64,000 bases of DNA from positions 111,086 to 175,085 of the forward strand of contig JBBTTA010000001.1 of assembly GCA_038064475.1 (NCBI GenBank). The letters are read 5' to 3'. The stretch is from Patescibacteria group bacterium. Its GTDB lineage: Bacteria > Patescibacteriota > Minisyncoccia > Phycocordibacterales > EsbW-18. Within the stretch, counting starts at the first letter, position 1. Every line of letters starts with the position of its first letter. A program made the position numbers and the translations under genes. This document shows, in pieces, positions 3,060 through 50,219 of the stretch. Below the pieces are notes generated by a model. That model had not been told where the DNA came from. It made no database searches and saw nothing but the letters and a program-made list of their open reading frames with translations.

Positions 3060-3959
3060 CTATCGGTCAAAAATACTTACAAGATACGTATCAATATCCC
3101 GCTGGTCCATGTCATAGAAGTACTCTTTTTCACGATGGAGGTCTTTTGCGAGATCGAGACCGACAAAACGCCAATGCCATGGTTCGAATTGGTAGTAGGT
3201 ATTGTTTTCAGGATACGAAAGAACAAATCCGTATTTGTATGCGTTTGCGAGAAGCCACGTATATGCTGGTGTAACATTGAATCCATCAAGCGCGCCGTTT
3301 GTTGCGACCGTTGAAAAATCCACCGTCGTGCCGAGTTGATGTTCTGAATATCCTTGATCTGCAGAAAATTGATTCGCCGTACCCGCACCATAGACGACAC
3401 TGTAGCTCGATTTGAGTGTTGTCTGTTCTCCAAATGAACGGAATGCGGAAATGATGCGAAGATCCACGTTATCGTTATCTGCTTCTTCCATGAGGTCTTC
3501 CAAAAAAGGCCATACTTTTGAGTGAATGTTTTCTGCCTCAACTTCTGGATATCTATATTGTTTTTCTATTTCTTTGAACGATGGCGGTGAGTAGTGTTCA
3601 TTCAAAAAGTACACTTTGGAGTATTTCTGCAATAGTTCAGGATCAGTTTTACTCAATTTTTCGAGCATACCAACCGTGTCAGCAATATCATCAATTTGGT
3701 CCTCCAAATCCTCGTTCTTTTTTTGTTCAGAGTAAAGAGCCTCAGACAATGTTTTATTTTCCAACTCTTTTTCTCCAAGTTTTGTTGAGAGATCCCCTAC
3801 CTCTGTCGTATATTTTTCATTCGCTGTGGCAAGTTTTGTCTGTGCTCTCCACCAGCCCAATGCAAGTCCCGCGCACAACACAAAGCCAATAAGAGCGTAT
3901 ATGTAGACTGACTGGGCTTTCTCTCTGGTATCGCTGTGATGCTCTGTATGTGTATTCAT
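3060..3959 (-). CDS. D-alanyl-D-alanine carboxypeptidase (VanY / peptidase M15B family), membrane-anchored with a coiled-coil region
   Basis: The C-terminus has YSEHQLGTTVDF and WHWRFVG, which are M15 motifs. The ORF track extends to 4040, but the ATG at 3959 (MNTHTEHH...) avoids overlapping the divergent GH18 start. Confidence 0.75.
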   Translation of the reverse strand: MNTHTEHHSDTREKAQSVYIYALIGFVLCAGLALGWWRAQTKLATANEKYTTEVGDLSTKLGEKELENKTLSEALYSEQKKNEDLEDQIDDIADTVGMLEKLSKTDPELLQKYSKVYFLNEHYSPPSFKEIEKQYRYPEVEAENIHSKVWPFLEDLMEEADNDNVDLRIISAFRSFGEQTTLKSSYSVVYGAGTANQFSADQGYSEHQLGTTVDFSTVATNGALDGFNVTPAYTWLLANAYKYGFVLSYPENNTYYQFEPWHWRFVGLDLAKDLHREKEYFYDMDQRDIDTYLVSIFDR

Positions 3960-8383: not shown

Positions 8384-8953
8384 TTAAAAGTTTCTTATAA
8401 TCGATTCACAAATATCTGCTGCTGTTTTTGCCCAATGTTCACTTATTTCTCCATTTCCCTCCGATAGTTCCTTGTGTAAATGCACATAGTTCCTTAAATC
8501 TCTGATGATGTGAATTTTATGATTTTCCATGTCGGAAAGATAGCCATTTTTGTGTGCAATCTCAAGAGCATCATTAAAGTTTTTTGCTTTTGGATATTTT
8601 TCAATTAATATAGCTTCAATAATCGAACCATATAAAATGATGGATGGTTTCCATAAGGAATTTTTTAGGCAAATTTTTGCAGATTTATAGTCTCTCTGAA
8701 GCAAGGGCTGTAGTCTTTTGCTGTTAATAAAGTCGAAGGTTCGCTCTGCAACTTTTTTTCTCATTGTTGGATCTTTTTCAAATAGATCCTTCGCACGATT
8801 ACTCATCATTTGTCGATATTCATCAGACACTAGCTTTGCTCTTGGAAATCGTTTTTGGTATTCAAGTGAAGACAGTTTGTGTTTTCTGTTTATATGAGTT
8901 GCGAGGCCTGAAGAAAATGTTTCTCCACAAATTTTACATTTTACTCTTTCCAT
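8384..8953 (-). CDS. C2H2-like zinc-finger protein with a C-terminal HEPN/DUF4145-like motif; possible defence or abortive-infection nuclease
   Basis: The N-terminus reads CKICGETFSSGLATHINRKH, a C-x2-C-x10-H-x4-H pattern. The C-terminus reads IIRDLRNYVHLH, an R..(R)N..H arrangement resembling the HEPN Rx4-6H motif. The gene is conspicuously AT-rich compared with its neighbours. Confidence 0.55.
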   Translation of the reverse strand: MERVKCKICGETFSSGLATHINRKHKLSSLEYQKRFPRAKLVSDEYRQMMSNRAKDLFEKDPTMRKKVAERTFDFINSKRLQPLLQRDYKSAKICLKNSLWKPSIILYGSIIEAILIEKYPKAKNFNDALEIAHKNGYLSDMENHKIHIIRDLRNYVHLHKELSEGNGEISEHWAKTAADICESIIRNF

Positions 8954-9121
8954 AGTTTTATATTGTTGCGGGACACTGGATTTTTGAATCCTCTCTTTGT
9001 ATTGACCGGTAAAGTGAGCATATCACAGGTATATGACTCGCGCAGTGCGACGGCACGAGCGGGAGTGCCGTTCTAGCAAGAACGGACACGTGTCATATGC
9101 CGGTGAGTATGCGAACGAATG

Positions 9122-9192
9122 TTGCGGGACTTGGATTCGAACCAAGATACCCTCCTCCAAAGGGAGGTGTCCTACCATTAGACGATCCCGCA
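9122..9192 (-). tRNA. tRNA-Gln (anticodon TTG)
   Basis: On the minus strand a cloverleaf can be drawn: acceptor TGCGGGA/TCCCGCA, anticodon stem CCTCC/GGAGG with loop CTTTGGA, and T-arm CTTGG-TTCGAAT-CCAAG. Confidence 0.85.
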
Positions 9193-21935: not shown

Positions 21936-22016
21936 GCCGGAGTGGCGGAATGGTATACGCGCACGACTCAAAATCGTGTCTCGAAAGGGATGAGGGTTCG
22001 AGTCCCTCCTCCGGCA
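21936..22016 (+). tRNA. tRNA-Leu (anticodon CAA), class II with a long variable arm
   Basis: A cloverleaf can be drawn: acceptor GCCGGAG/CTCCGGC, anticodon loop CTCAAAA, variable arm TCTCGAAAGGGAT and T-arm GAGGG-TTCGAGT-CCCTC. Confidence 0.9.
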
Positions 22017-22027
22017 CAAAGACAGTT

Positions 22028-22063
22028 GAGGCGGACGCATAGCGTCCGCCGATTACTGATTTT
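22028..22063 (+). terminator. terminator after tRNA-Leu(CAA)
   Basis: The hairpin gcggacgc-ata-gcgtccgc is followed by gattactgatttt. Confidence 0.6.
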
Positions 22064-22064
22064 C

Positions 22065-22187
22065 GCCGGAGGAGGGACTCGAAGGCGAATGCGGGCACCT
22101 TGTCAGCAGACAAGGTCGCATGAGCAGGGCCGAGCGGAGTAAGGAGCGACGGCGACGAACGAGCGCTTGGCCGAGTCCCGACGACTC
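22065..22187. repeat. tRNA-Leu 3'-flank structured element, copy 1 of 3
   Basis: It starts with gccggaggagggactcgaa, the exact reverse complement of this tRNA's T-arm and acceptor 3' half. A conserved GC-rich core follows (cgaatgcgggcaccttgtcagcagacaaggtcgcatgagcagg...gagcgacggcgacgaa). It ends with cgagtccc, which pairs with gggactcg in the first segment. Confidence 0.5.
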
Positions 22188-22201
22188 TTACCTACACCTT
22201 T

Positions 22202-44239: not shown

Positions 44240-44554
44240 ATGCACGAAGGAACACGAGAAGAAACATTTGCGCATCTTGCTGCAGAGTTTATCAATCGAG
44301 AATCAAACCGCGAATCACTTATTACCGTCACGCGCGTGATGTCGTCAACGGACAGCAAACGTGCTGATGTCTACATCACTGTACTCCCTGACACACGCGT
44401 TCCTGAGGCCCTCGACTTTTTGAAACGTAAACGAAGTGAGTTCCGTGAATTCGTAAAAACACATACGCGCGGACGTTCAGTTCCAACATTTGATTTTGTG
44501 TTTGATGTTGGTGAAAAAAACCGACAAGAAATCGAAGCATTGTCACAACATTGA
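44240..44554 (+). CDS. rbfA: ribosome-binding factor A
   Basis: 104 aa beginning MHEGTREETFAHLAAEFINRESNRESLITVTRV, which resembles RbfA. It sits directly downstream of infB. Confidence 0.7.
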   Translation: MHEGTREETFAHLAAEFINRESNRESLITVTRVMSSTDSKRADVYITVLPDTRVPEALDFLKRKRSEFREFVKTHTRGRSVPTFDFVFDVGEKNRQEIEALSQH

Positions 44555-44625
44555 GGCACGGGCGGGAATCGAACCCGCGCATGACGGTTTTGCAGACCGT
44601 AGTGTTACCACTTCACCACCGTGCC
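44554..44625 (-). tRNA. tRNA-Cys (anticodon GCA)
   Basis: On the minus strand: acceptor GGCACGG/CCGTGCC, anticodon loop CTGCAAA and T-arm GCGGG-TTCGATT-CCCGC. Confidence 0.85.
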
Positions 44626-44670
44626 ATGATTGTGTACAGAGTATCTCTATTTTGGTATTTTGGGAAGCAA

Positions 44671-44753
44671 GCTGGGGTGGCGAAATGGTATACGCGACAG
44701 ACTTAAGATCTGTTGTCCGCAAGGACGTGAGGGTTCGATCCCCTCTCCCAGCA
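44671..44753 (+). tRNA. tRNA-Leu (anticodon TAA), class II
   Basis: Acceptor GCTGGGG/TCCCAGC (with one G-U pair), anticodon loop CTTAAGA, long variable arm and T-arm GAGGG-TTCGATC-CCCTC. Confidence 0.9.
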
Positions 44754-44766
44754 CTAAAATTGTTGA

Positions 44767-44799
44767 GACGAACACATGTGTTCGTCGATTACTATTTTT
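44767..44799 (+). terminator. terminator after tRNA-Leu(TAA)
   Basis: The palindrome gacgaacacatgtgttcgtc is followed by gattactattttt. Confidence 0.6.
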
Positions 44800-44919
44800 G
44801 CTGGGAGAGGGGATCGAAGGCGAGTGCGGGCGCCTTGTCAGCAGACAAGGTCGCATGAGCAGGACTGAGAGGAATGAGGAGCGACGGCGACGAATGAGCT
44901 CTTGGTCTGAGCCCCTCTC
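44800..44919. repeat. tRNA-Leu 3'-flank structured element, copy 2 of 3
   Basis: It starts with gctgggagaggggatcgaa, the exact reverse complement of this tRNA's 3' half. The core is about 90% identical to copy 1. It ends with cccctctc, which pairs with gagagggg in the first segment. Confidence 0.5.
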
Positions 44920-44968
44920 TTAAAATATAAATTGCGAATAGAGCGTTATTTTAGTAGGATACAAACAC

Positions 44969-45040
44969 CCATCCGTAGCTCAATGGTAGAGCAGCTCCCT
45001 CTTAAGGAGTTGGTTGTAGGTTCGACTCCTACCGGGTGGA
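44969..45040 (+). tRNA. tRNA-Lys (anticodon CTT)
   Basis: Acceptor CCATCCG/CGGGTGG, D-arm GCTC-AATGGTA-GAGC, anticodon loop CTCTTAA and T-arm GTAGG-TTCGACT-CCTAC. Confidence 0.85.
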
Positions 45041-45130
45041 CTTTCAAAGAAAGTCCTGCATATTAGAGTGTGCGGAGCACATTCTACTCCGGCAAGCTTT
45101 GCCTGATTCGCGTTCTGACGCGACAAAGCT

Positions 45131-45224
45131 TACCGGGTGGACAAGTGAGCCGGTATCGATGAGCTTGCTTATCGGAAACGGCGAGCGCGGACACTCGGTA
45201 TCCTATACCGGGTGGACAAGTGAG
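45131..45224 (+). repeat. two 19-nt direct repeats (taccgggtggacaagtgag) that copy the 3' end of tRNA-Lys; they resemble att-site remnants
   Basis: The 12-nt core taccgggtggac is present at the tRNA 3' end (45030..45041) and again at 45131..45149 and 45206..45224. Confidence 0.5.
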
Positions 45225-45246
45225 TTTTAGTCGCCTGCTCACGTTC

Positions 45247-45328
45247 GGGCGAGTGGCGAAATTGGTAGACGCGCCAGCCTTAGGAGCTGGTGGAGCAATC
45301 CTTGGAGGTTCGAGTCCTCTCTCGCCCA
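45247..45328 (+). tRNA. tRNA-Leu (anticodon TAG), class II
   Basis: Acceptor GGGCGAG/CTCGCCC, anticodon loop CTTAGGA, long variable arm and T-arm GGAGG-TTCGAGT-CCTCT. Confidence 0.9.
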
Positions 45329-45335
45329 CACATAC

Positions 45336-45368
45336 AAAAACAACGCCAGTTTATTGGCGTTGTTTTTG
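45336..45368 (+). terminator. terminator after tRNA-Leu(TAG)
   Basis: The hairpin aaaaacaacgcc-agtttatt-ggcgttgttttt is present. Confidence 0.6.
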
Positions 45369-45384
45369 TATGTGCTGACGAAAA

Positions 45385-45495
45385 CGAGAGAGGACTCGAA
45401 GGACGGAGCGGTGTTGCAGAAGCTTCTGCAACCGCGAGTCCGTGCCTAGCCCGAACCGAGCGACGGCGAGGTGAGAGGCGAAGGAGAGTCCTCTT
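45385..45495. repeat. tRNA-Leu 3'-flank structured element, copy 3 of 3 (the divergent member)
   Basis: It starts with cgagagaggactcgaa, the reverse complement of this tRNA's 3' half. It shares gagcgacggcga with the other copies. Its internal hairpin gttgcagaagcttctgcaac replaces the ccttgtcagcagacaagg hairpin of copies 1 and 2. It ends with gagtcctct, which pairs with agaggactc. Confidence 0.45.
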
Positions 45496-45656
45496 CCCTT
45501 TCAAGCCCCTGTTAAGCCTTTATTTTTGGCCATATAGCTTGACTTTTTGGGTGAAAGTGCTATAATCGTCGGCAGAGTTGGGAACGTGTGTTCCCTAAAG
45601 TTCTTCGTCAACCTAGAGTCAAAACAAACTTCCCTATTGGGAAAGGAGATACAAAA

Positions 45657-46757
45657 ATGCTCATCTGGTTCGCAATCGTAGTGCTTTTCGTAATCCTCGT
45701 CATCCTTGCCGGAAAACTCGGCTGGTTCATGACCGAGGTTCCCGAGGGCTCTATGAAGTTCGTAAAAGCTGGTGAGGATTACGTCCGTACAATCCTCAAC
45801 ATCAAGAACAAGACGATGGTCAGGAAGTTTGATCCAGCAACTGGAGTCGAAGAAGAAGTCATCGAAACTGGATTCAATCCACTGTCTTTGTCTCCTCTTC
45901 GTGTATTCGGTTTTCACTGGATCAGTTGGATGTGGCCTCTTCGGCGTCTGCATCGGTTTTCTTTGACTACGAACATTCTCATTACGGAAACCGAACAGGG
46001 TCAAAAGAAACTCCACGAGTGGGTGCAGACCAAGCCACACGACAACACCGACCGACTTGGTCTCATGATCCGATCATACTTCTTTTTGAAGGGGGTCGAG
46101 CTCAAGGGGCAGTTCAAGGTAGACGTCGTTGTGTTCGCTCTCATGGAGATCGTCAACCCGCGTCTTGCAGTCTTCGTGTACAATGCTGACTTCGTCAAGA
46201 TCTTGGGACCAGCAATCCTTTCTGGATATGCTGACAATGCCAAGACCAAAGACATCGTCCAGTTCACGAACCTGAAGAAAGGACGTGGGAGTAAGTTCGC
46301 ACAAGATGTTTGTGAGTATGTAAATACAGGCCGCAGAAGTAAGGTCGCAACCGAGAAAATCGAAAACGTATACGGCGTTCGACTTGTCGAGACGTTTGTA
46401 TACGAGTTCGACCAAGCAGATGCTGATCCCGAGGCTCTCAAGGCCGCACAGGCTCAGAAAGTTGCCGAGCTCCAAGCAAAGGCAACTATCACAAGAGCAA
46501 CGGGTCAAGCTGAAGCTCGAGTGATCGAAGCCAATGCAAAAGCCACCGAGCTCTCGTCGAACGTCAAAGCACTCGTCGAGGTTGGGGTTGATCCCAACGA
46601 AGCGATGCGTAGTTACGCGACCATCCGTTCGACAGAGAATGTTCCAAACCTTCAGACGTGGGTGCAAGGTGGCGGTGTGGTTCCGACAGTTTCTGTTGGC
46701 AATCCCACTTCCCCTTCCCCTTCGTCCAAGAACAAACCCAAGGAGACTCCCTCATGA
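45657..46757 (+). CDS. SPFH / band-7 (stomatin/HflK-like) domain membrane protein
   Basis: It has an N-terminal TM helix, a band-7 core and a coiled-coil, AQAQKVAELQAKATITRATGQAEARVIEANAKA. AAGGAG sits 8 nt upstream of the ATG. The region's GC is visibly elevated. Confidence 0.75.
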   Translation: MLIWFAIVVLFVILVILAGKLGWFMTEVPEGSMKFVKAGEDYVRTILNIKNKTMVRKFDPATGVEEEVIETGFNPLSLSPLRVFGFHWISWMWPLRRLHRFSLTTNILITETEQGQKKLHEWVQTKPHDNTDRLGLMIRSYFFLKGVELKGQFKVDVVVFALMEIVNPRLAVFVYNADFVKILGPAILSGYADNAKTKDIVQFTNLKKGRGSKFAQDVCEYVNTGRRSKVATEKIENVYGVRLVETFVYEFDQADADPEALKAAQAQKVAELQAKATITRATGQAEARVIEANAKATELSSNVKALVEVGVDPNEAMRSYATIRSTENVPNLQTWVQGGGVVPTVSVGNPTSPSPSSKNKPKETPS

Positions 46758-47815
46758 TGAAGCGATTTTTGTTTCGTGCGAAGCGTTTCGCACGCAAGTG
46801 CGATATCAGGCTTCGTCGGAGGTTTCGTTCATTCGCAACCTTCGTCACGGTTCAGCGACGACGTGTTGGTTCTCACCTTCGCGTCGTGGTTTGGCCGAGG
46901 CTCAAGCTTCGACTGAACCAATTCAGTGTCCTTCTCATCACGAGAGGTATCGTACCTATCAAGGCACACTACCTGAAACATCGACTGATGGTTGTGACTG
47001 CCTTTAAGTTCGTGCTGAAAATCACTGCGGTCATCGTAGTGCTTCTCATAGCACGCGCACAGGGGCTCTTCGGAGAGAGCCTTTCTTTGAGGGAGTATCG
47101 GTGGTGGATCCTTGGAGTGCTTGTTGCACTCTGTGTGGTTCTACTTTCCGTGCTCCTATATCGGAAAGGGGTTCGCCTCAAGAAGTTTTCACTTCCGGGT
47201 TCTGTGGGTGAGAGGTTCAGCTTCAAAGGCTTCCTCAAACTTGCTCTGCTTGTGTTCGTGATCTTCTTCTTCAAGGATGTCATCGTAGCTACGGCTGCGG
47301 GCATCTGGAGCATTCGTCCCACCGACGAGAATATCGCTCGTTGGGAGAAGGACAAGCGTGCTGCTGAAGAAGCGACACGCAAAGCTCGCAGAACGGATTG
47401 GCCGTGCACATACGACCTCTCGGAGTACGGCGGGAAGCACGTCGCTAACCACGACGCGAAGTTCCTCAAGCCGGACGATGGAGAGGCGTGGAAGGTCTGT
47501 TTCTATGACCGACGCAAGCCCGAGCCCCTCTCCAACCAGCAGTTGAATAACTTCTGGAAGGACACCTTCCCTACACTCGTCGGAGATTCTGCTGGCTGGG
47601 ATGTAATCGTGATCAAAAACCGTGACTTCAACACGAAGACGTGTATGGTCCGGGACAAGCACAACAACGCATACTACCGACAGCAGTTTCCGAAGGAGTC
47701 TGGCGAGGTTTCGATCGACATGGTCGACGAGTCTCGCCGGCTCGTCATCGGCGGGGACAGCAAGGAAGAGGCCGAGTCGGGTAAAATCCCGCAAGTGTTC
47801 ACAATTTCCTGTTAG
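46754..47815 (+). CDS. hypothetical membrane protein co-transcribed with the SPFH gene
   Basis: Its ATG overlaps the SPFH stop (ATGA). It has two or three TM helices centrally and a soluble C-terminal domain. Confidence 0.5.
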   Translation: MMKRFLFRAKRFARKCDIRLRRRFRSFATFVTVQRRRVGSHLRVVVWPRLKLRLNQFSVLLITRGIVPIKAHYLKHRLMVVTAFKFVLKITAVIVVLLIARAQGLFGESLSLREYRWWILGVLVALCVVLLSVLLYRKGVRLKKFSLPGSVGERFSFKGFLKLALLVFVIFFFKDVIVATAAGIWSIRPTDENIARWEKDKRAAEEATRKARRTDWPCTYDLSEYGGKHVANHDAKFLKPDDGEAWKVCFYDRRKPEPLSNQQLNNFWKDTFPTLVGDSAGWDVIVIKNRDFNTKTCMVRDKHNNAYYRQQFPKESGEVSIDMVDESRRLVIGGDSKEEAESGKIPQVFTISC

Positions 47816-47834
47816 ACTCAAGGTTGAAATTCCA

Positions 47835-47870
47835 GAGGCGACGCCACAAGCGTCGCCTCTTTTCTTTTTT
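47835..47870 (+). terminator. rho-independent terminator
   Basis: The hairpin gaggcgacgc-cacaa-gcgtcgcctc is followed by ttttctttttt. Confidence 0.75.
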
Positions 47871-47968: not shown

Positions 47969-48277
47969 TTAGATTCCGCCTTCAACTTGCGGCTCTATCT
48001 GTTCGTTTATTGAAGGTAGAGGCTCGTTACTTCCTATAGTCCCATGAATGATACGGATGATGCCAAACACTGACACCATGATGACCATGCCAATGATTCC
48101 ATAAAGCATATTCCTCTTCCCTGTTGCACGCTCACCTTCGTCATCAACATTCTTTATGAACTGGAATATTCCGTAAATGAAGAGGAGAAATGCAACAGCA
48201 AAAAGCAACATGATGACCGGACGCACGATGACATCATACAGTCGCGTCAAAAGTCCATTAACGGTCATTGGCTCCAT
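47969..48277 (-). CDS. small two-helix membrane protein, pilin-like paralog 1 (TrbC/VirB2-like architecture)
   Basis: 102 aa. The core LLFIYGIFQFIKNVDDEGERATGKRNMLYGIIGMVIMVSVFGIIRII is shared with the five upstream ORFs. Confidence 0.55.
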   Translation of the reverse strand: MEPMTVNGLLTRLYDVIVRPVIMLLFAVAFLLFIYGIFQFIKNVDDEGERATGKRNMLYGIIGMVIMVSVFGIIRIIHGTIGSNEPLPSINEQIEPQVEGGI

Positions 48278-48291
48278 GAACTGAAATATAG

Positions 48292-48642
48292 TTAGTTTCC
48301 TTCAACACCAGGAACTGGTAGTGACCCACCTTGATCAACACCAACCGCGTCACCAATCCATCGGATGATACCAACGATAGAAACGATAACGAAGAGTGCA
48401 ATGATACCTCCGATCATGAGGTTTTTACCTTGTTCTTTTGCTTCGTCACTACCTGAAGCGAAGATAAACTTCACCAAACCCCAGAAGAAAACAAGGAGAG
48501 CGATACCGACAACGATAGGTGTTGCAAGATCAACCAACCGGCCGATCGCTTCAACAATGTTCTCCACATTACCCAACTGTGCGTGTGCAAATGCTGGCAC
48601 AAATGCCGCAGCCGCAAGCGCGATAAGACCAATTCTTTTCAT
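48292..48642 (-). CDS. pilin-like small membrane protein, paralog 2
   Basis: 116 aa with a signal peptide ending AFAHA, then a hydrophobic helix, the loop GSDEAKEQGKN and a second helix IGGIIALFVIVSIVGIIRWI. Confidence 0.55.
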   Translation of the reverse strand: MKRIGLIALAAAAFVPAFAHAQLGNVENIVEAIGRLVDLATPIVVGIALLVFFWGLVKFIFASGSDEAKEQGKNLMIGGIIALFVIVSIVGIIRWIGDAVGVDQGGSLPVPGVEGN

Positions 48643-48749
48643 ACGTGTAAATATCTAGTTTTTAAACCTATAGGCCTTCGAAAGAAAGCTATGTATCCAT
48701 TATACCCTGCCCTGTGTGTGAGCAAGGACGCTATACACAGATGGGGAAA

Positions 48750-49118
48750 CTATGGTGTTGGAGGTGGTATTACTATTGGTGGAAGAATTGGAGGTGTTCC
48801 CGGTGTTATACCAACCTCTATTCCAATCCAGCGTATAATTCCGAAAATTGCAAAAAGTACAAAGAGTGCAATCGCACCTTGTACCATAAGTCGACGCCCT
48901 CCTTCTTTCGCACCTTCGTCTTCCGCATTCGCAATGTATTTTACAAGACCCCAAATAAAAACAAGAAGTGCAAGTGAAGCTGCAATGATTGTCAGTGTAG
49001 TGATAACTTGTCGAAAACTGGTTAAAAGGAGCTTTGTATTTGAAAGATTACCTCCTCCTTGCGCCAACACAAGAACCGGAAGAGCAAGAAGCCCAGATAT
49101 AAACAATAATTTTTTCAT
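48750..49118 (-). CDS. pilin-like small membrane protein, paralog 3, with a Pro-rich C-terminal tail
   Basis: 122 aa with the same core, LVFIWGLVKYIANAEDEGAKEGGRRLMVQGAIALFVLFAIFGIIRWI. Confidence 0.55.
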   Translation of the reverse strand: MKKLLFISGLLALPVLVLAQGGGNLSNTKLLLTSFRQVITTLTIIAASLALLVFIWGLVKYIANAEDEGAKEGGRRLMVQGAIALFVLFAIFGIIRWIGIEVGITPGTPPILPPIVIPPPTP

Positions 49119-49137
49119 AAAATAATATTAATTAATT

Positions 49138-49446
49138 TCAACCGAAGATATCGGTCTTGATAAACTGAACGATACCCCAGAAAGAGAAAAGAACGAACAA
49201 ACCGATAATACCGTATACCATTATTTTTCGGCCGTCATCCTTCGCTTTTCCATCCCCCGCTGATGCAATGTACTTTACGATTCCCCATACGAACGCAAGA
49301 ACTGCCAAAGCGCTCGCCAGCACAATAAGTGGGTTGATAAGGCCGATCGCGTCATTAATAAGTTCTGTAAGATTTGCAGGTGCGGCAAAGGCAAGACTTG
49401 GAACAATCAAGGAAAGAATAAAAGCTGATTTTTTCATATTATCCAA
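49138..49446 (-). CDS. pilin-like small membrane protein, paralog 4
   Basis: 102 aa reading AFVWGIVKYIASAGDGKAKDDGRKIMVYGIIGLFVLFSFWGIVQFI. Confidence 0.55.
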   Translation of the reverse strand: MDNMKKSAFILSLIVPSLAFAAPANLTELINDAIGLINPLIVLASALAVLAFVWGIVKYIASAGDGKAKDDGRKIMVYGIIGLFVLFSFWGIVQFIKTDIFG

Positions 49447-49873
49447 AATGAATTATTTCTGCTGAGTTTGTTCCTGCTCGTATCTGGTCAAGTGTTCCTT
49501 TGATGACGTTCGCAAGCACCGTCGCCCCAAGAAGTACCGCTGTGCCGATAAGTGTATACAAAAGAGTTTTCTTTGCGCTTTTCAACGCCTCCTCATTACC
49601 ACGTGCCTTCACAAACAAAAATCCGGAGTAAATGATGAAAAAAACAGCGACATAAAATCCAATCGTCGTTGCAGCTTTTGCGGCTTCGACAACAACTTCT
49701 TGAATTGAATCAAATTTAAGTGGGTTAACAATTTGAACAGGGCCCGGATTAGGTGTTCCTTGCGCAAAGGCAAAAGATACCGAAATAAATAGTCCAAAAA
49801 ATAATGCTATATAAAGTTTTTTAAAATGCGTTTCCATATCCTCCGTATCCAGACTTAACAAATGTTGTAACAA
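49439..49873 (-). CDS. pilin-like small membrane protein, paralog 5 (longer form)
   Basis: It has the same topology and loop, GFLFVKARGNEEALKSAKKTLLYTLIGTAVLLGATVLANVI. The start is uncertain; METHFKK at 49837 is possible. Confidence 0.5.
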   Translation of the reverse strand: MLQHLLSLDTEDMETHFKKLYIALFFGLFISVSFAFAQGTPNPGPVQIVNPLKFDSIQEVVVEAAKAATTIGFYVAVFFIIYSGFLFVKARGNEEALKSAKKTLLYTLIGTAVLLGATVLANVIKGTLDQIRAGTNSAEIIHFG

Positions 49874-50219
49874 TAAGATTCACGATAAGCCAAGCTGACA
49901 AAGCTATTATAAAGCCAATACCTGCATTTTTAAAGATGCTTTTTGCTTGTTCCATCCTTCCAGGATTGCCTCCCGCTGTAATAAGCAAAAACCCAGCCCA
50001 CAAGAAAAGAATTGTCACCAAGGGAATTGAGATCTTAAAGAGGAGAAAATCAATGAGACCGTCAACAAGTTGAACGAGACTCGCAAAATTACAGTCCAAA
50101 CCGTCACAGGGAACAAGACCTTCCGGCTCTGCTGCCCCAACAAGGATCGGTACCAAAAGAAGCATAAAAACGGCAACGCTTGCGTACACTCCCCATCGTT
50201 TGCCTGCCGTTTGTTTCAT
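49821..50219 (-). CDS. pilin-like small membrane protein, paralog 6 (with a Cys pair in the N-terminal region)
   Basis: 132 aa reading ILFLWAGFLLITAGGNPGRMEQAKSIFKNAGIGFIIALSAWLIVNLIV. Confidence 0.5.
   Translation of the reverse strand: MKQTAGKRWGVYASVAVFMLLLVPILVGAAEPEGLVPCDGLDCNFASLVQLVDGLIDFLLFKISIPLVTILFLWAGFLLITAGGNPGRMEQAKSIFKNAGIGFIIALSAWLIVNLIVTTFVKSGYGGYGNAF

Follow-up and report, generated by a model that had tools for sequence, protein, structure and literature searches.

A cluster of four tRNA genes in a Patescibacteria group bacterium is probably a landing site for miniature, non-coding and non-autonomous elements that insert site-specifically at the 3' part of tRNA and transfer-messenger RNA (tmRNA) genes, from the T-loop to the 3' end; we put the probability of this reading at roughly 0.55. 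The cluster lies in a stretch of 64,000 nucleotides of contig JBBTTA010000001.1 (assembly GCA_038064475.1), called the window here, and a contig identical to it is known from Hainich groundwater. Five of the six tRNA genes in the window are followed by a short non-coding block and then by a copy of their own 3' end, tRNA-Cys being the exception, and these window inserts are 56 to 190 bp long and non-coding.

All three tRNA-Leu genes, one of which (CAA) lies 23 kb from the cluster, carry blocks of one family. A k-mer comparison of the tRNA genes with the window shows that each tRNA-Leu gene has, 45 to 60 nt downstream, a perfect reverse complement of its own 3' end that spans the T-loop, the 3' strand of the T-stem and the 3' strand of the acceptor stem. 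The three blocks align and have in common TCGAAGG, a hairpin, the 12-mer GAGCGACGGCGA (three exact copies in the window versus 0.35 expected) and a short direct copy of the T-loop and T-stem at the far end; blocks of this kind are named family E. A complete copy measures about 130 to 190 bp, and its parts follow the tRNA in the order P0 (a hairpin), arm b (the inverted copy), P2, P3 and arm g (the direct copy). R1, a covariance model from 32 E copies, gives exactly three matches on the 64-kb window, at 91 to 101 bits (E0, E1 and E3), and the genes downstream of them differ (miaA, tRNA-Lys and a gene for an SPFH-like protein). From T54 of the tRNA through the end of the inverted arm, a near-perfect hairpin of ~90 nt forms at each tRNA-Leu, with a DNA energy of -35 to -40 kcal/mol and z of -11 to -13. 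The three tRNA-Leu genes and their E copies are arranged as follows.

21936-22190, + strand: tRNA-Leu(CAA), at 21936-22017, with P0 and E0
22063-22190, + strand: E0, 100.7 bits with R1; arm b, the 19-nt inverted copy, at 22065-22083; arm g at 22172-22179
44671-44754, + strand: tRNA-Leu(TAA); its last 20 nt (44734-44753, T54 to the discriminator) are the 5' arm of the ~90-nt hairpin
44755-44798, + strand: P0 of E1, a terminator-like hairpin (stem 44767-44786) and T-run
44798-44925, + strand: E1, 91.3 bits with R1; arm b, the 20-nt inverted copy, at 44799-44818; P2 hairpin; P3 with its GAGCGACGGCGA loop at 44879-44890; arm g at 44909-44919
45247-45329, + strand: tRNA-Leu(TAG)
45330-45381, + strand: P0 of E3, a long A/T-rich bidirectional terminator-like hairpin with arms at 45322-45348 and 45355-45381
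45380-45503, + strand: E3, 92.6 bits with R1; arm b, the 16-nt inverted copy, at 45385-45400, complementing the tRNA at 45309-45324; P2; P3 with GAGCGACGGCGA at 45458-45469; arm g at 45486-45494

The arm g of E1 is a 10/11 direct match to the T-loop and T-stem of tRNA-Leu(TAA).

Family E extends well beyond the window, and nearly all of its copies lie behind tRNA genes. In a loose pattern scan of genome contigs, 4 of 119 matches are real, the rest being mostly chance matches in GC-rich genomes; the four lie just behind co-oriented tRNA genes (Cys, Gly, Leu and Val), two of them in Candidatus Paceibacterota genomes. A stricter pattern gave 69 loci in metagenome contigs. When the window is counted along with all fetched loci (designated by L numbers), 44 pattern matches are found at 40 to 70 nt behind a co-oriented tRNA gene, with 22 anticodons represented. 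R1 added 58 further genuine-looking matches in the metagenome loci, nearly all of them directly behind a tRNA, and one false positive in coding sequence (L144). In one case a tmRNA gene is directly followed by an E copy whose arms have their full length (L148, 8032-8580, - strand; tag peptide AKSVTSPYFTANDFAFAYAKA), and tmRNA genes are thus targeted as well as tRNA genes. The 29 pattern matches in viral contigs are all due to chance, and none scored with R1. Rfam 15, searched at gathering and permissive thresholds with the window and four loci holding all subtypes, returned tRNA models only, plus spurious microRNA-like matches from the long hairpin, and we found no description of such elements in the literature searched. 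The elements have no room for an open reading frame (ORF), and their neighbours are housekeeping genes. Among the commonest neighbours in 25 E loci are genes for CCA-adding enzymes (PolyA_pol head domain, 4 loci) and HD-domain proteins (7), which may simply be the ordinary surroundings of tRNA genes.

The conserved core has a well-supported fold. P0 is often terminator-like, P2 is a hairpin with an AGCA-type loop, and P3 is a two-part stem with the cap GA-GC-GACG-GC-GA. Both sides change in 22 of the 25 predicted pairs; 88% of cells are paired, versus 61% in column shuffles and 39 to 46% when the partners are slid, and the covariation score is 0.745, versus 0.245 in shuffles and 0.11 to 0.17 in slid alignments. 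G-U pairs outnumber A-C pairs by 43 to 18, so that the strand which folds is the tRNA sense strand. In some type-B copies (L142, L164, L176, L010, L138 and L139) the loops of P0 (CTGCT) and P2 (AGCAG) are complementary to each other, and this complementarity suggests a kissing-loop contact in those copies; as a general feature of the family it is ruled out, being missing in L009, L149, L152 and L173.

The arms are specific to the tRNA gene beside which they lie. Arm b is the reverse complement of tRNA positions 54-64, extending up to ~73 in a long-armed class, and matches its own tRNA at 10.4 of 15 positions versus 6.4 (standard deviation 1.8) for other tRNAs. In complete copies arm g repeats, in direct orientation, the stretch of the tRNA between the T-loop and position 73/74, and it matches its own tRNA at 13.7 of 17 positions versus 9.3 for others. 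In arm g, positions 54-55 nearly always differ from the tRNA, 56-58 sometimes and 63-73 nearly never, and by this profile the junction lies either in the T-stem or in the T-loop's 3' half. Cores within and between genomes are 83 to 92% identical, including genomes whose SPFH proteins are 60% identical, while P0 tracks orthology.

Comparison with relatives indicates that these blocks come and go. Directly after tRNA-Leu(TAA) in L162, L127, L170 and L132 there is unrelated DNA, and these empty sites imply that P0 and E together are an insertion. Four syntenic relatives (L220, L221, L223 and L225) were found through homologues of the SPFH-like protein, at 38 to 64% identity, and all keep the four tRNAs between rbfA and the SPFH gene, with differing orientations and element content, as listed here.

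tRNA-Leu(TAG): full type-B-like copy in the window; none in L221; type-A in L223; mini in L220; mini in L225
tRNA-Cys: none in the window; mini in L221; E in L223; none in L220; not on the fetched locus of L225
tRNA-Leu(TAA): E1 in the window; mini plus the E1 orthologue in L221; none in L223; none in L220; not on the fetched locus of L225

The E1 orthologue in L221 has a P0 93% identical to that of E1, and its arm b follows the changed sequence of the tRNA-Leu(TAA) there. Elsewhere E copies stand in tandem arrays that mix subtypes, each unit bounded by a tRNA-end copy, as behind tRNA-His in L145 and tRNA-Cys in L132. The signature by which integration at tRNA and tmRNA genes is accepted, namely a regenerated gene together with a displaced fragment of its 3' end (PMC4383910), is matched here, and the presence/absence differences and arrays are those that repeated site-specific insertion produces. 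Since element content behind the same four tRNAs varies among relatives, the cluster qualifies as a hotspot, in line with the preliminary description of this DNA, which had proposed a possible hotspot with repeated integration and excision at a tRNA att site; the tRNA-Lys repeats do look like scars left by site-specific insertion at the 3' end of a tRNA. The cluster occupies 9348-9747 in L220, 4069-4995 in L221, 5705-6309 in L223 and 44553-45329 in the window, with individual tRNAs flipped; this suggests local inversions, perhaps between inverted tRNA-end copies. L221 also has, at 3752-3830 and ~240 nt upstream of its intact tRNA-Cys, a tRNA-Cys 5' fragment with ~30 nt inserted in the anticodon loop, which is a different kind of tRNA-gene scar.

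The tRNA-Lys gene of the window carries inserts with cores other than that of E. The four tRNA genes of the cluster lie within 777 bp (ARAGORN and Rfam agree), as close together as first described. The remaining tRNA genes and their inserts are the following.

44553-44625, - strand: tRNA-Cys(GCA), without a trailing insert; its 3' side adjoins the rbfA stop codon
44969-45041, + strand: tRNA-Lys(CTT)
45042-45130, + strand: insert A, 89 nt, structured, with hairpins, followed by the first displaced copy of the tRNA-Lys 3' end at 45131-45142
45143-45224, + strand: insert B, a 56-nt body between two 19-nt TACCGGGTGGACAAGTGAG copies
9121-9192, - strand: tRNA-Gln(TTG), with a displaced 3'-end copy, GTCCCGCAAC, at 8974-8965, ~150 nt downstream

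The last 12 nt of the tRNA-Lys gene, TACCGGGTGGAC, take in the final 3 nt of the T-stem together with the 3' strand of the acceptor stem, the discriminator and C74, and recur exactly at 45131-45142 and 45206-45217. Both recurrences belong to a perfect 19-nt repeat, TACCGGGTGGACAAGTGAG, at 45131-45149 and 45206-45224, with a spacing of 75 nt, just where the preliminary description had seen two perfect 19-nt direct repeats of the tRNA-Lys end. With a 14-nt version and up to 2 mismatches, three occurrences are found versus 0.13 expected, and none of 100 shuffles reaches three. Insert A has a stem in which 45089-45101 pairs with 45124-45136, and it is found with its first repeat in L221 and L223, with compensatory stem changes and a slightly diverged repeat; its presence in both relatives marks it as old and conserved. 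The body of insert B is missing from both, and insert B is therefore a later, lineage-specific event; as this body is unrelated in sequence to insert A, tandem duplication is ruled out as its origin. The two repeats are best read as two displaced copies bounding the old insert A and the lineage-specific insert B.

The ~150-nt block between tRNA-Gln and its displaced copy is likewise structured. R1 gives nothing above noise in the tRNA-Lys and tRNA-Gln inserts, which rules them out as diverged E copies. A 189-aa ORF with a CxxC...HxxxxH N-terminus begins right after the displaced tRNA-Gln copy (region 8384-9192, - strand), and a weak promoter-like pair, TTGCGA-17-TAGGAT, can be read by eye before tRNA-Lys at 44932-44960 and is kept in L221.

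Small elements with the architecture of E (hairpin, inverted tRNA-end arm, body and direct copy) and unrelated cores are also present at L173 (4769-5040), L174 (4560-4869) and L132 (3050-3270), those of L173 and L174 behind tRNA-Lys, and the architecture is thus common to several families. At L153 (174-1480), tRNA-Ser(CGA) is followed by a block of ~1.1 kb with an ORF for a Vut_1-family transporter, then by a degenerate tRNA-end-like box with TAAAAT, a P0 and an E copy whose arms match tRNA-Ser. This block, seen in L153 only, may be a cassette that carries a gene and has E as its boundary. Ahead of the orphan E of L132, at ~520-560, there is a similar box, GTTCGAGC...TATAAT...CAGCAC.

As we envisage it, insertion would leave the tRNA intact with the element behind its 3' end, and the far side of the element would bear a second, displaced copy of the tRNA 3' end that later decays. 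Recombination would take place in the 3' half of the T-loop or in the T-stem, through a recombinase that acts in trans and recognises the universal T-loop. Pairing of arm b with the tRNA-end sequence would rebuild the target site as a hairpin on one strand, and the integrated order would be tRNA end, loop, inverted arm, body and displaced end. Single-stranded sites that fold, among them integron attC and the attP of CTX phage, have this order too, which is a comparison and not a test. How the arms come to match a new tRNA is a matter for guesswork: gene conversion or exchange between copies might do it, as might palindrome correction, and the mosaic similarity of P0 and core is compatible with this.

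Several points weigh against a mobile element. Integrase, reverse transcriptase and transposase families are absent from the 25 most frequent Pfam families among 118 flanking ORFs, a weak negative that covers the commonest families only, and a recombinase motif regular expression found nothing in the window, a weak test with a crude pattern; no recombinase was identified in either search, and no excised or free form was seen. We infer mobility from presence and absence and from the arrays. The features of a classical double-stranded attP are missing, with no inverted core sites flanking the junction, and the matching of arms to a new tRNA has no account beyond the guesses above. In the window arm g has shrunk to 8-11 nt while arm b remains a perfect complement of the tRNA, and in the L221 orthologue too arm b tracks the tRNA sequence; selection for an RNA or DNA that pairs with the tRNA end could be the reason just as well. 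The G-U excess and several conserved loop motifs are to be expected of a functional RNA too. The search patterns fixed TCGAAGG and GAGCGACGGCGA, so that the invariance of these motifs partly reflects how the copies were found; among lower-scoring R1 matches both vary, and one of the changes within the 12-mer is compensatory, from C-G to T-A.

The most serious alternative, although we regard it as a good deal less probable than insertion, is that selection keeps E and insert A as functional structured RNAs, immobile and produced as 3' trailers or small RNAs together with the tRNA or next to it. At the same lower probability, arm b would pair with the tRNA 3' half or with arm g and so control folding, processing, termination or decay of tRNA transcripts. 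The strong covariation, the conserved loops, the preponderance of G-U pairs on the tRNA sense strand and the closeness of the cores across diverged genomes all sit well with such a role, as does insert A, kept with compensatory changes in three lineages. So does the exactness of arm b in the window (16-20 nt), which persists despite the decay of arm g and is mirrored in L221, where it tracks the changed tRNA-Leu(TAA). Mini elements have no terminator between tRNA and element and must therefore be co-transcribed with the tRNA. An RNA serving as an essential partner would, however, hardly be expected to be absent, mini, type-A or type-B-like behind one and the same orthologous tRNA, with empty sites common. 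Different subtypes also stand side by side in tandem arrays. Many copies have a terminator-like hairpin and T-run that separate the tRNA from E, the pairing of arm b reaches the discriminator in many, unlike the acceptor end of a tRNA, and no Rfam family matches. A mobile element needing its own RNA would satisfy both readings, which are not strictly exclusive.

That the tRNA-end copies arise locally, inverted ones by template switching at the terminator palindrome and direct ones by slippage, as neutral by-products, is improbable. Taken together, the tRNA end, P0 and arm b of the window copies do form a near-perfect palindrome (~90 nt, z -11 to -13), and template switching can correct near-palindromes, so that arm b could stay matched to a selected tRNA without having a function. 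Local origin fails, however, to explain a shared, covarying core of 127 positions behind 22 anticodons in many genomes, the fixed T-loop junction or the mixed-subtype arrays, and insert B consists of 56 nt of new sequence and does not duplicate its neighbour. The homology of cores across genomes refutes it as a full explanation, although template switching may still maintain arm b.

The operon beyond the cluster, which encodes the SPFH-like protein, was initially thought to be part of a decayed island whose integrase had been lost. The features concerned are these.

45539-45566, + strand: sigma-70-type promoter of the SPFH operon, TTGACT-16-TATAAT, 11/12 matches, outside E3
45657-46757, + strand: SPFH-like gene
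46754-47815, + strand: partner gene, with a 4-nt overlap; both genes are outside every insert
47834-47870, + strand: intrinsic terminator ending the SPFH operon, a hairpin of 11 bp (8 GC) at 47834-47860 and then a T-run
47969-50219, - strand: array of small ORFs matching PF18895 T4SS_pilin (two window members tested)

Much of the preliminary description of this region stands. The operon has a GC content of 0.519 versus a window mean of 0.457 (z 3.4), its tetranucleotide profile is the most deviant of the window (z 5.0), and GC content at third codon positions (GC3) is 0.57 and 0.65 in its genes versus 0.37-0.44 in their neighbours; the strong terminator is there, and two members of the pilin-like array match PF18895. 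The SPFH-like protein of the window has no Pfam match at 1e-3, and a 48%-identical homologue, P0007, matches PF01145 Band_7 weakly. What is contradicted is the island. The gene order of the window is kept in all four relatives over the parts that their contigs cover, and L220 covers it in full: Trypsin_2, Aminotran_5, IF-2, RbfA, the tRNAs, the SPFH-like gene, its partner, the T4SS_pilin array, a solute-binding protein, a methyltransferase and GyrA. This synteny holds with none, a mini or a full element at tRNA-Leu(TAG), and in relatives the pilin array, with 3 to 6 genes, keeps its position. Past the operon the window has no further copy of the 3' end of either tRNA-Leu(TAG) or tRNA-Lys. In the relatives, too, the operon is 2 to 5 points higher in GC than its own locus, and the high GC is thus a property of these genes and not the mark of a recent arrival. 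The preliminary description had set uniform composition and an order conserved without the repeats against its island; the order is indeed conserved, which speaks against the island, while the composition is non-uniform and the repeats vary. The SPFH operon and the pilin array are ordinary core genes with a composition of their own and not island cargo. An integrative island that lost its integrase and left the tRNA-Lys repeats and the GC-rich operon is very improbable: the deviant composition and the adjoining tRNA genes with att-like repeats are what speak for it, and they are outweighed by the shared gene order at such protein identities, by an operon that sits outside the repeats with its own promoter and terminator, unbounded by tRNA-end copies, and by the same GC elevation in relatives.

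There is a substantial chance that family E, for which we found no description, is a new class of element or RNA; the known kind of process behind it is integration at tRNA genes. More tentatively, and at odds short of even, we propose that Patescibacteria carry undescribed, gene-less, hairpin-structured mobile cassettes that dock at the T-loop-to-3' end of any tRNA or tmRNA gene, have their site refolded single-stranded through arm b, pile up in integron- or CRISPR-like arrays and are moved by an enzyme of the host or of an element; or, alternatively, that they carry RNAs each tailored to the 3' half of one tRNA. If mobile, E would be among the smallest site-specific elements known and would show the re-tailoring of a docking site to many tRNAs, with a bearing on how integrases choose tRNA genes and on programmable insertion. 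If E copies are functional RNAs, they would add a further layer of tRNA handling in a major uncultured bacterial lineage. In very small genomes, elements of this type account for a large part of the non-coding DNA around tRNA genes and of the rearrangement there, and they would mislead island-finding tools, which would take the displaced tRNA fragments for island ends. Either way, R1 is a handle for surveys and experiments.

A number of known systems can be set aside. A T-box or other tRNA-sensing leader does not fit, as the pairing is with positions 54-73 and not with the anticodon or CCA, the downstream genes vary, and there is no Rfam T-box match. A retron non-coding RNA is not indicated, with no reverse transcriptase next to the three window copies or among the 25 commonest flanking families. 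A primer-binding site of retroviral type would not leave CCA uncovered, as arm b does, and a tRNA minihelix mimic is at odds with an arm b that often pairs through the discriminator. Casposon-like elements and those resembling MITEs (miniature inverted-repeat transposable elements) are rejected for want of terminal inverted repeats. Pairing in E is contiguous and not in internal loops as in the IS110 bridge RNA, and the searches above found no recombinase; GTTC targeting as in IS91 is rejected because the IS91 family makes no long repeats.

Bacterial MITEs and repetitive extragenic palindromic doublets forming hairpins (REPINs) are, like E, short, non-coding, hairpin-forming, intergenic and multi-copy. 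E differs from both in its missing terminal inverted repeats (read directly, the flanks inside the two repeats are not inverted copies), in being strictly tRNA-linked and always co-oriented, and in its repeats, which reproduce 13-21 nt of one particular gene end where those others would have short target duplications of arbitrary sequence. Integrative elements also have non-autonomous derivatives (reviewed in PMC5704250), among them the cis-mobilizable elements (CIMEs). Known CIMEs are kilobase-sized deletion derivatives of a known parent element; they have in common with E the att-like ends, the lack of recombination genes and a presumed movement in trans, whereas for E no parent element is known and the core structure is conserved across many lineages. 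In Prochlorococcus, tycheposons and tRNA-flanked cargo arrays offer a further parallel, in that repeated site-specific insertion into streamlined genomes has left its mark there as arrays of partial tRNA repeats (bioRxiv 10.1101/2020.12.28.424599). E has such arrays too, but tycheposons are kilobase-sized and gene-bearing, have their own recombinases and belong to a different phylum.

The tRNA and tmRNA islands and prophages with tyrosine integrases (the Islander model, PMC4383910) resemble E in that the tRNA gene is regenerated and its displaced 3' fragment stands as a direct repeat on the far side. Further likenesses are a T-loop junction, the use of tmRNA as a target and tandem insertions whose older, distal copies decay. 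The repeats of E and of the inserts are 12-21 nt long and end at position 73/74, and identity to the tRNA begins in the T-loop. A class of integration with its sublocation in the T-loop was reportedly distinguished by Williams in 2002. Unlike tRNA islands, these elements measure 56 to 190 bp and hold no integrase or other gene, and E has a conserved folded core, an internal inverted copy of its target and no inverted core-type sites at the junction. No cargo of foreign composition lies between the repeats, the SPFH operon being outside them; L153 has the one possible gene-bearing block.

Similar in layout are integron attC cassettes and the attP hairpin of CTX phage. E differs from integrons in that no IntI or Xer enzyme, attI or Pc was found and in having a tRNA gene end as its target, and from attC in that R and L boxes and extrahelical bases were not found. 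The order of parts is the same in all three, namely site copy, loop, inverted arm, body and site copy. In the known systems a hairpin of ~20 bp rebuilds the target site on one strand; in E the helix of 16-20 bp that arm b makes with the tRNA end might do likewise. Like attC cassettes, E forms arrays of short, often ORF-less units beside one fixed site, with structure kept over sequence.

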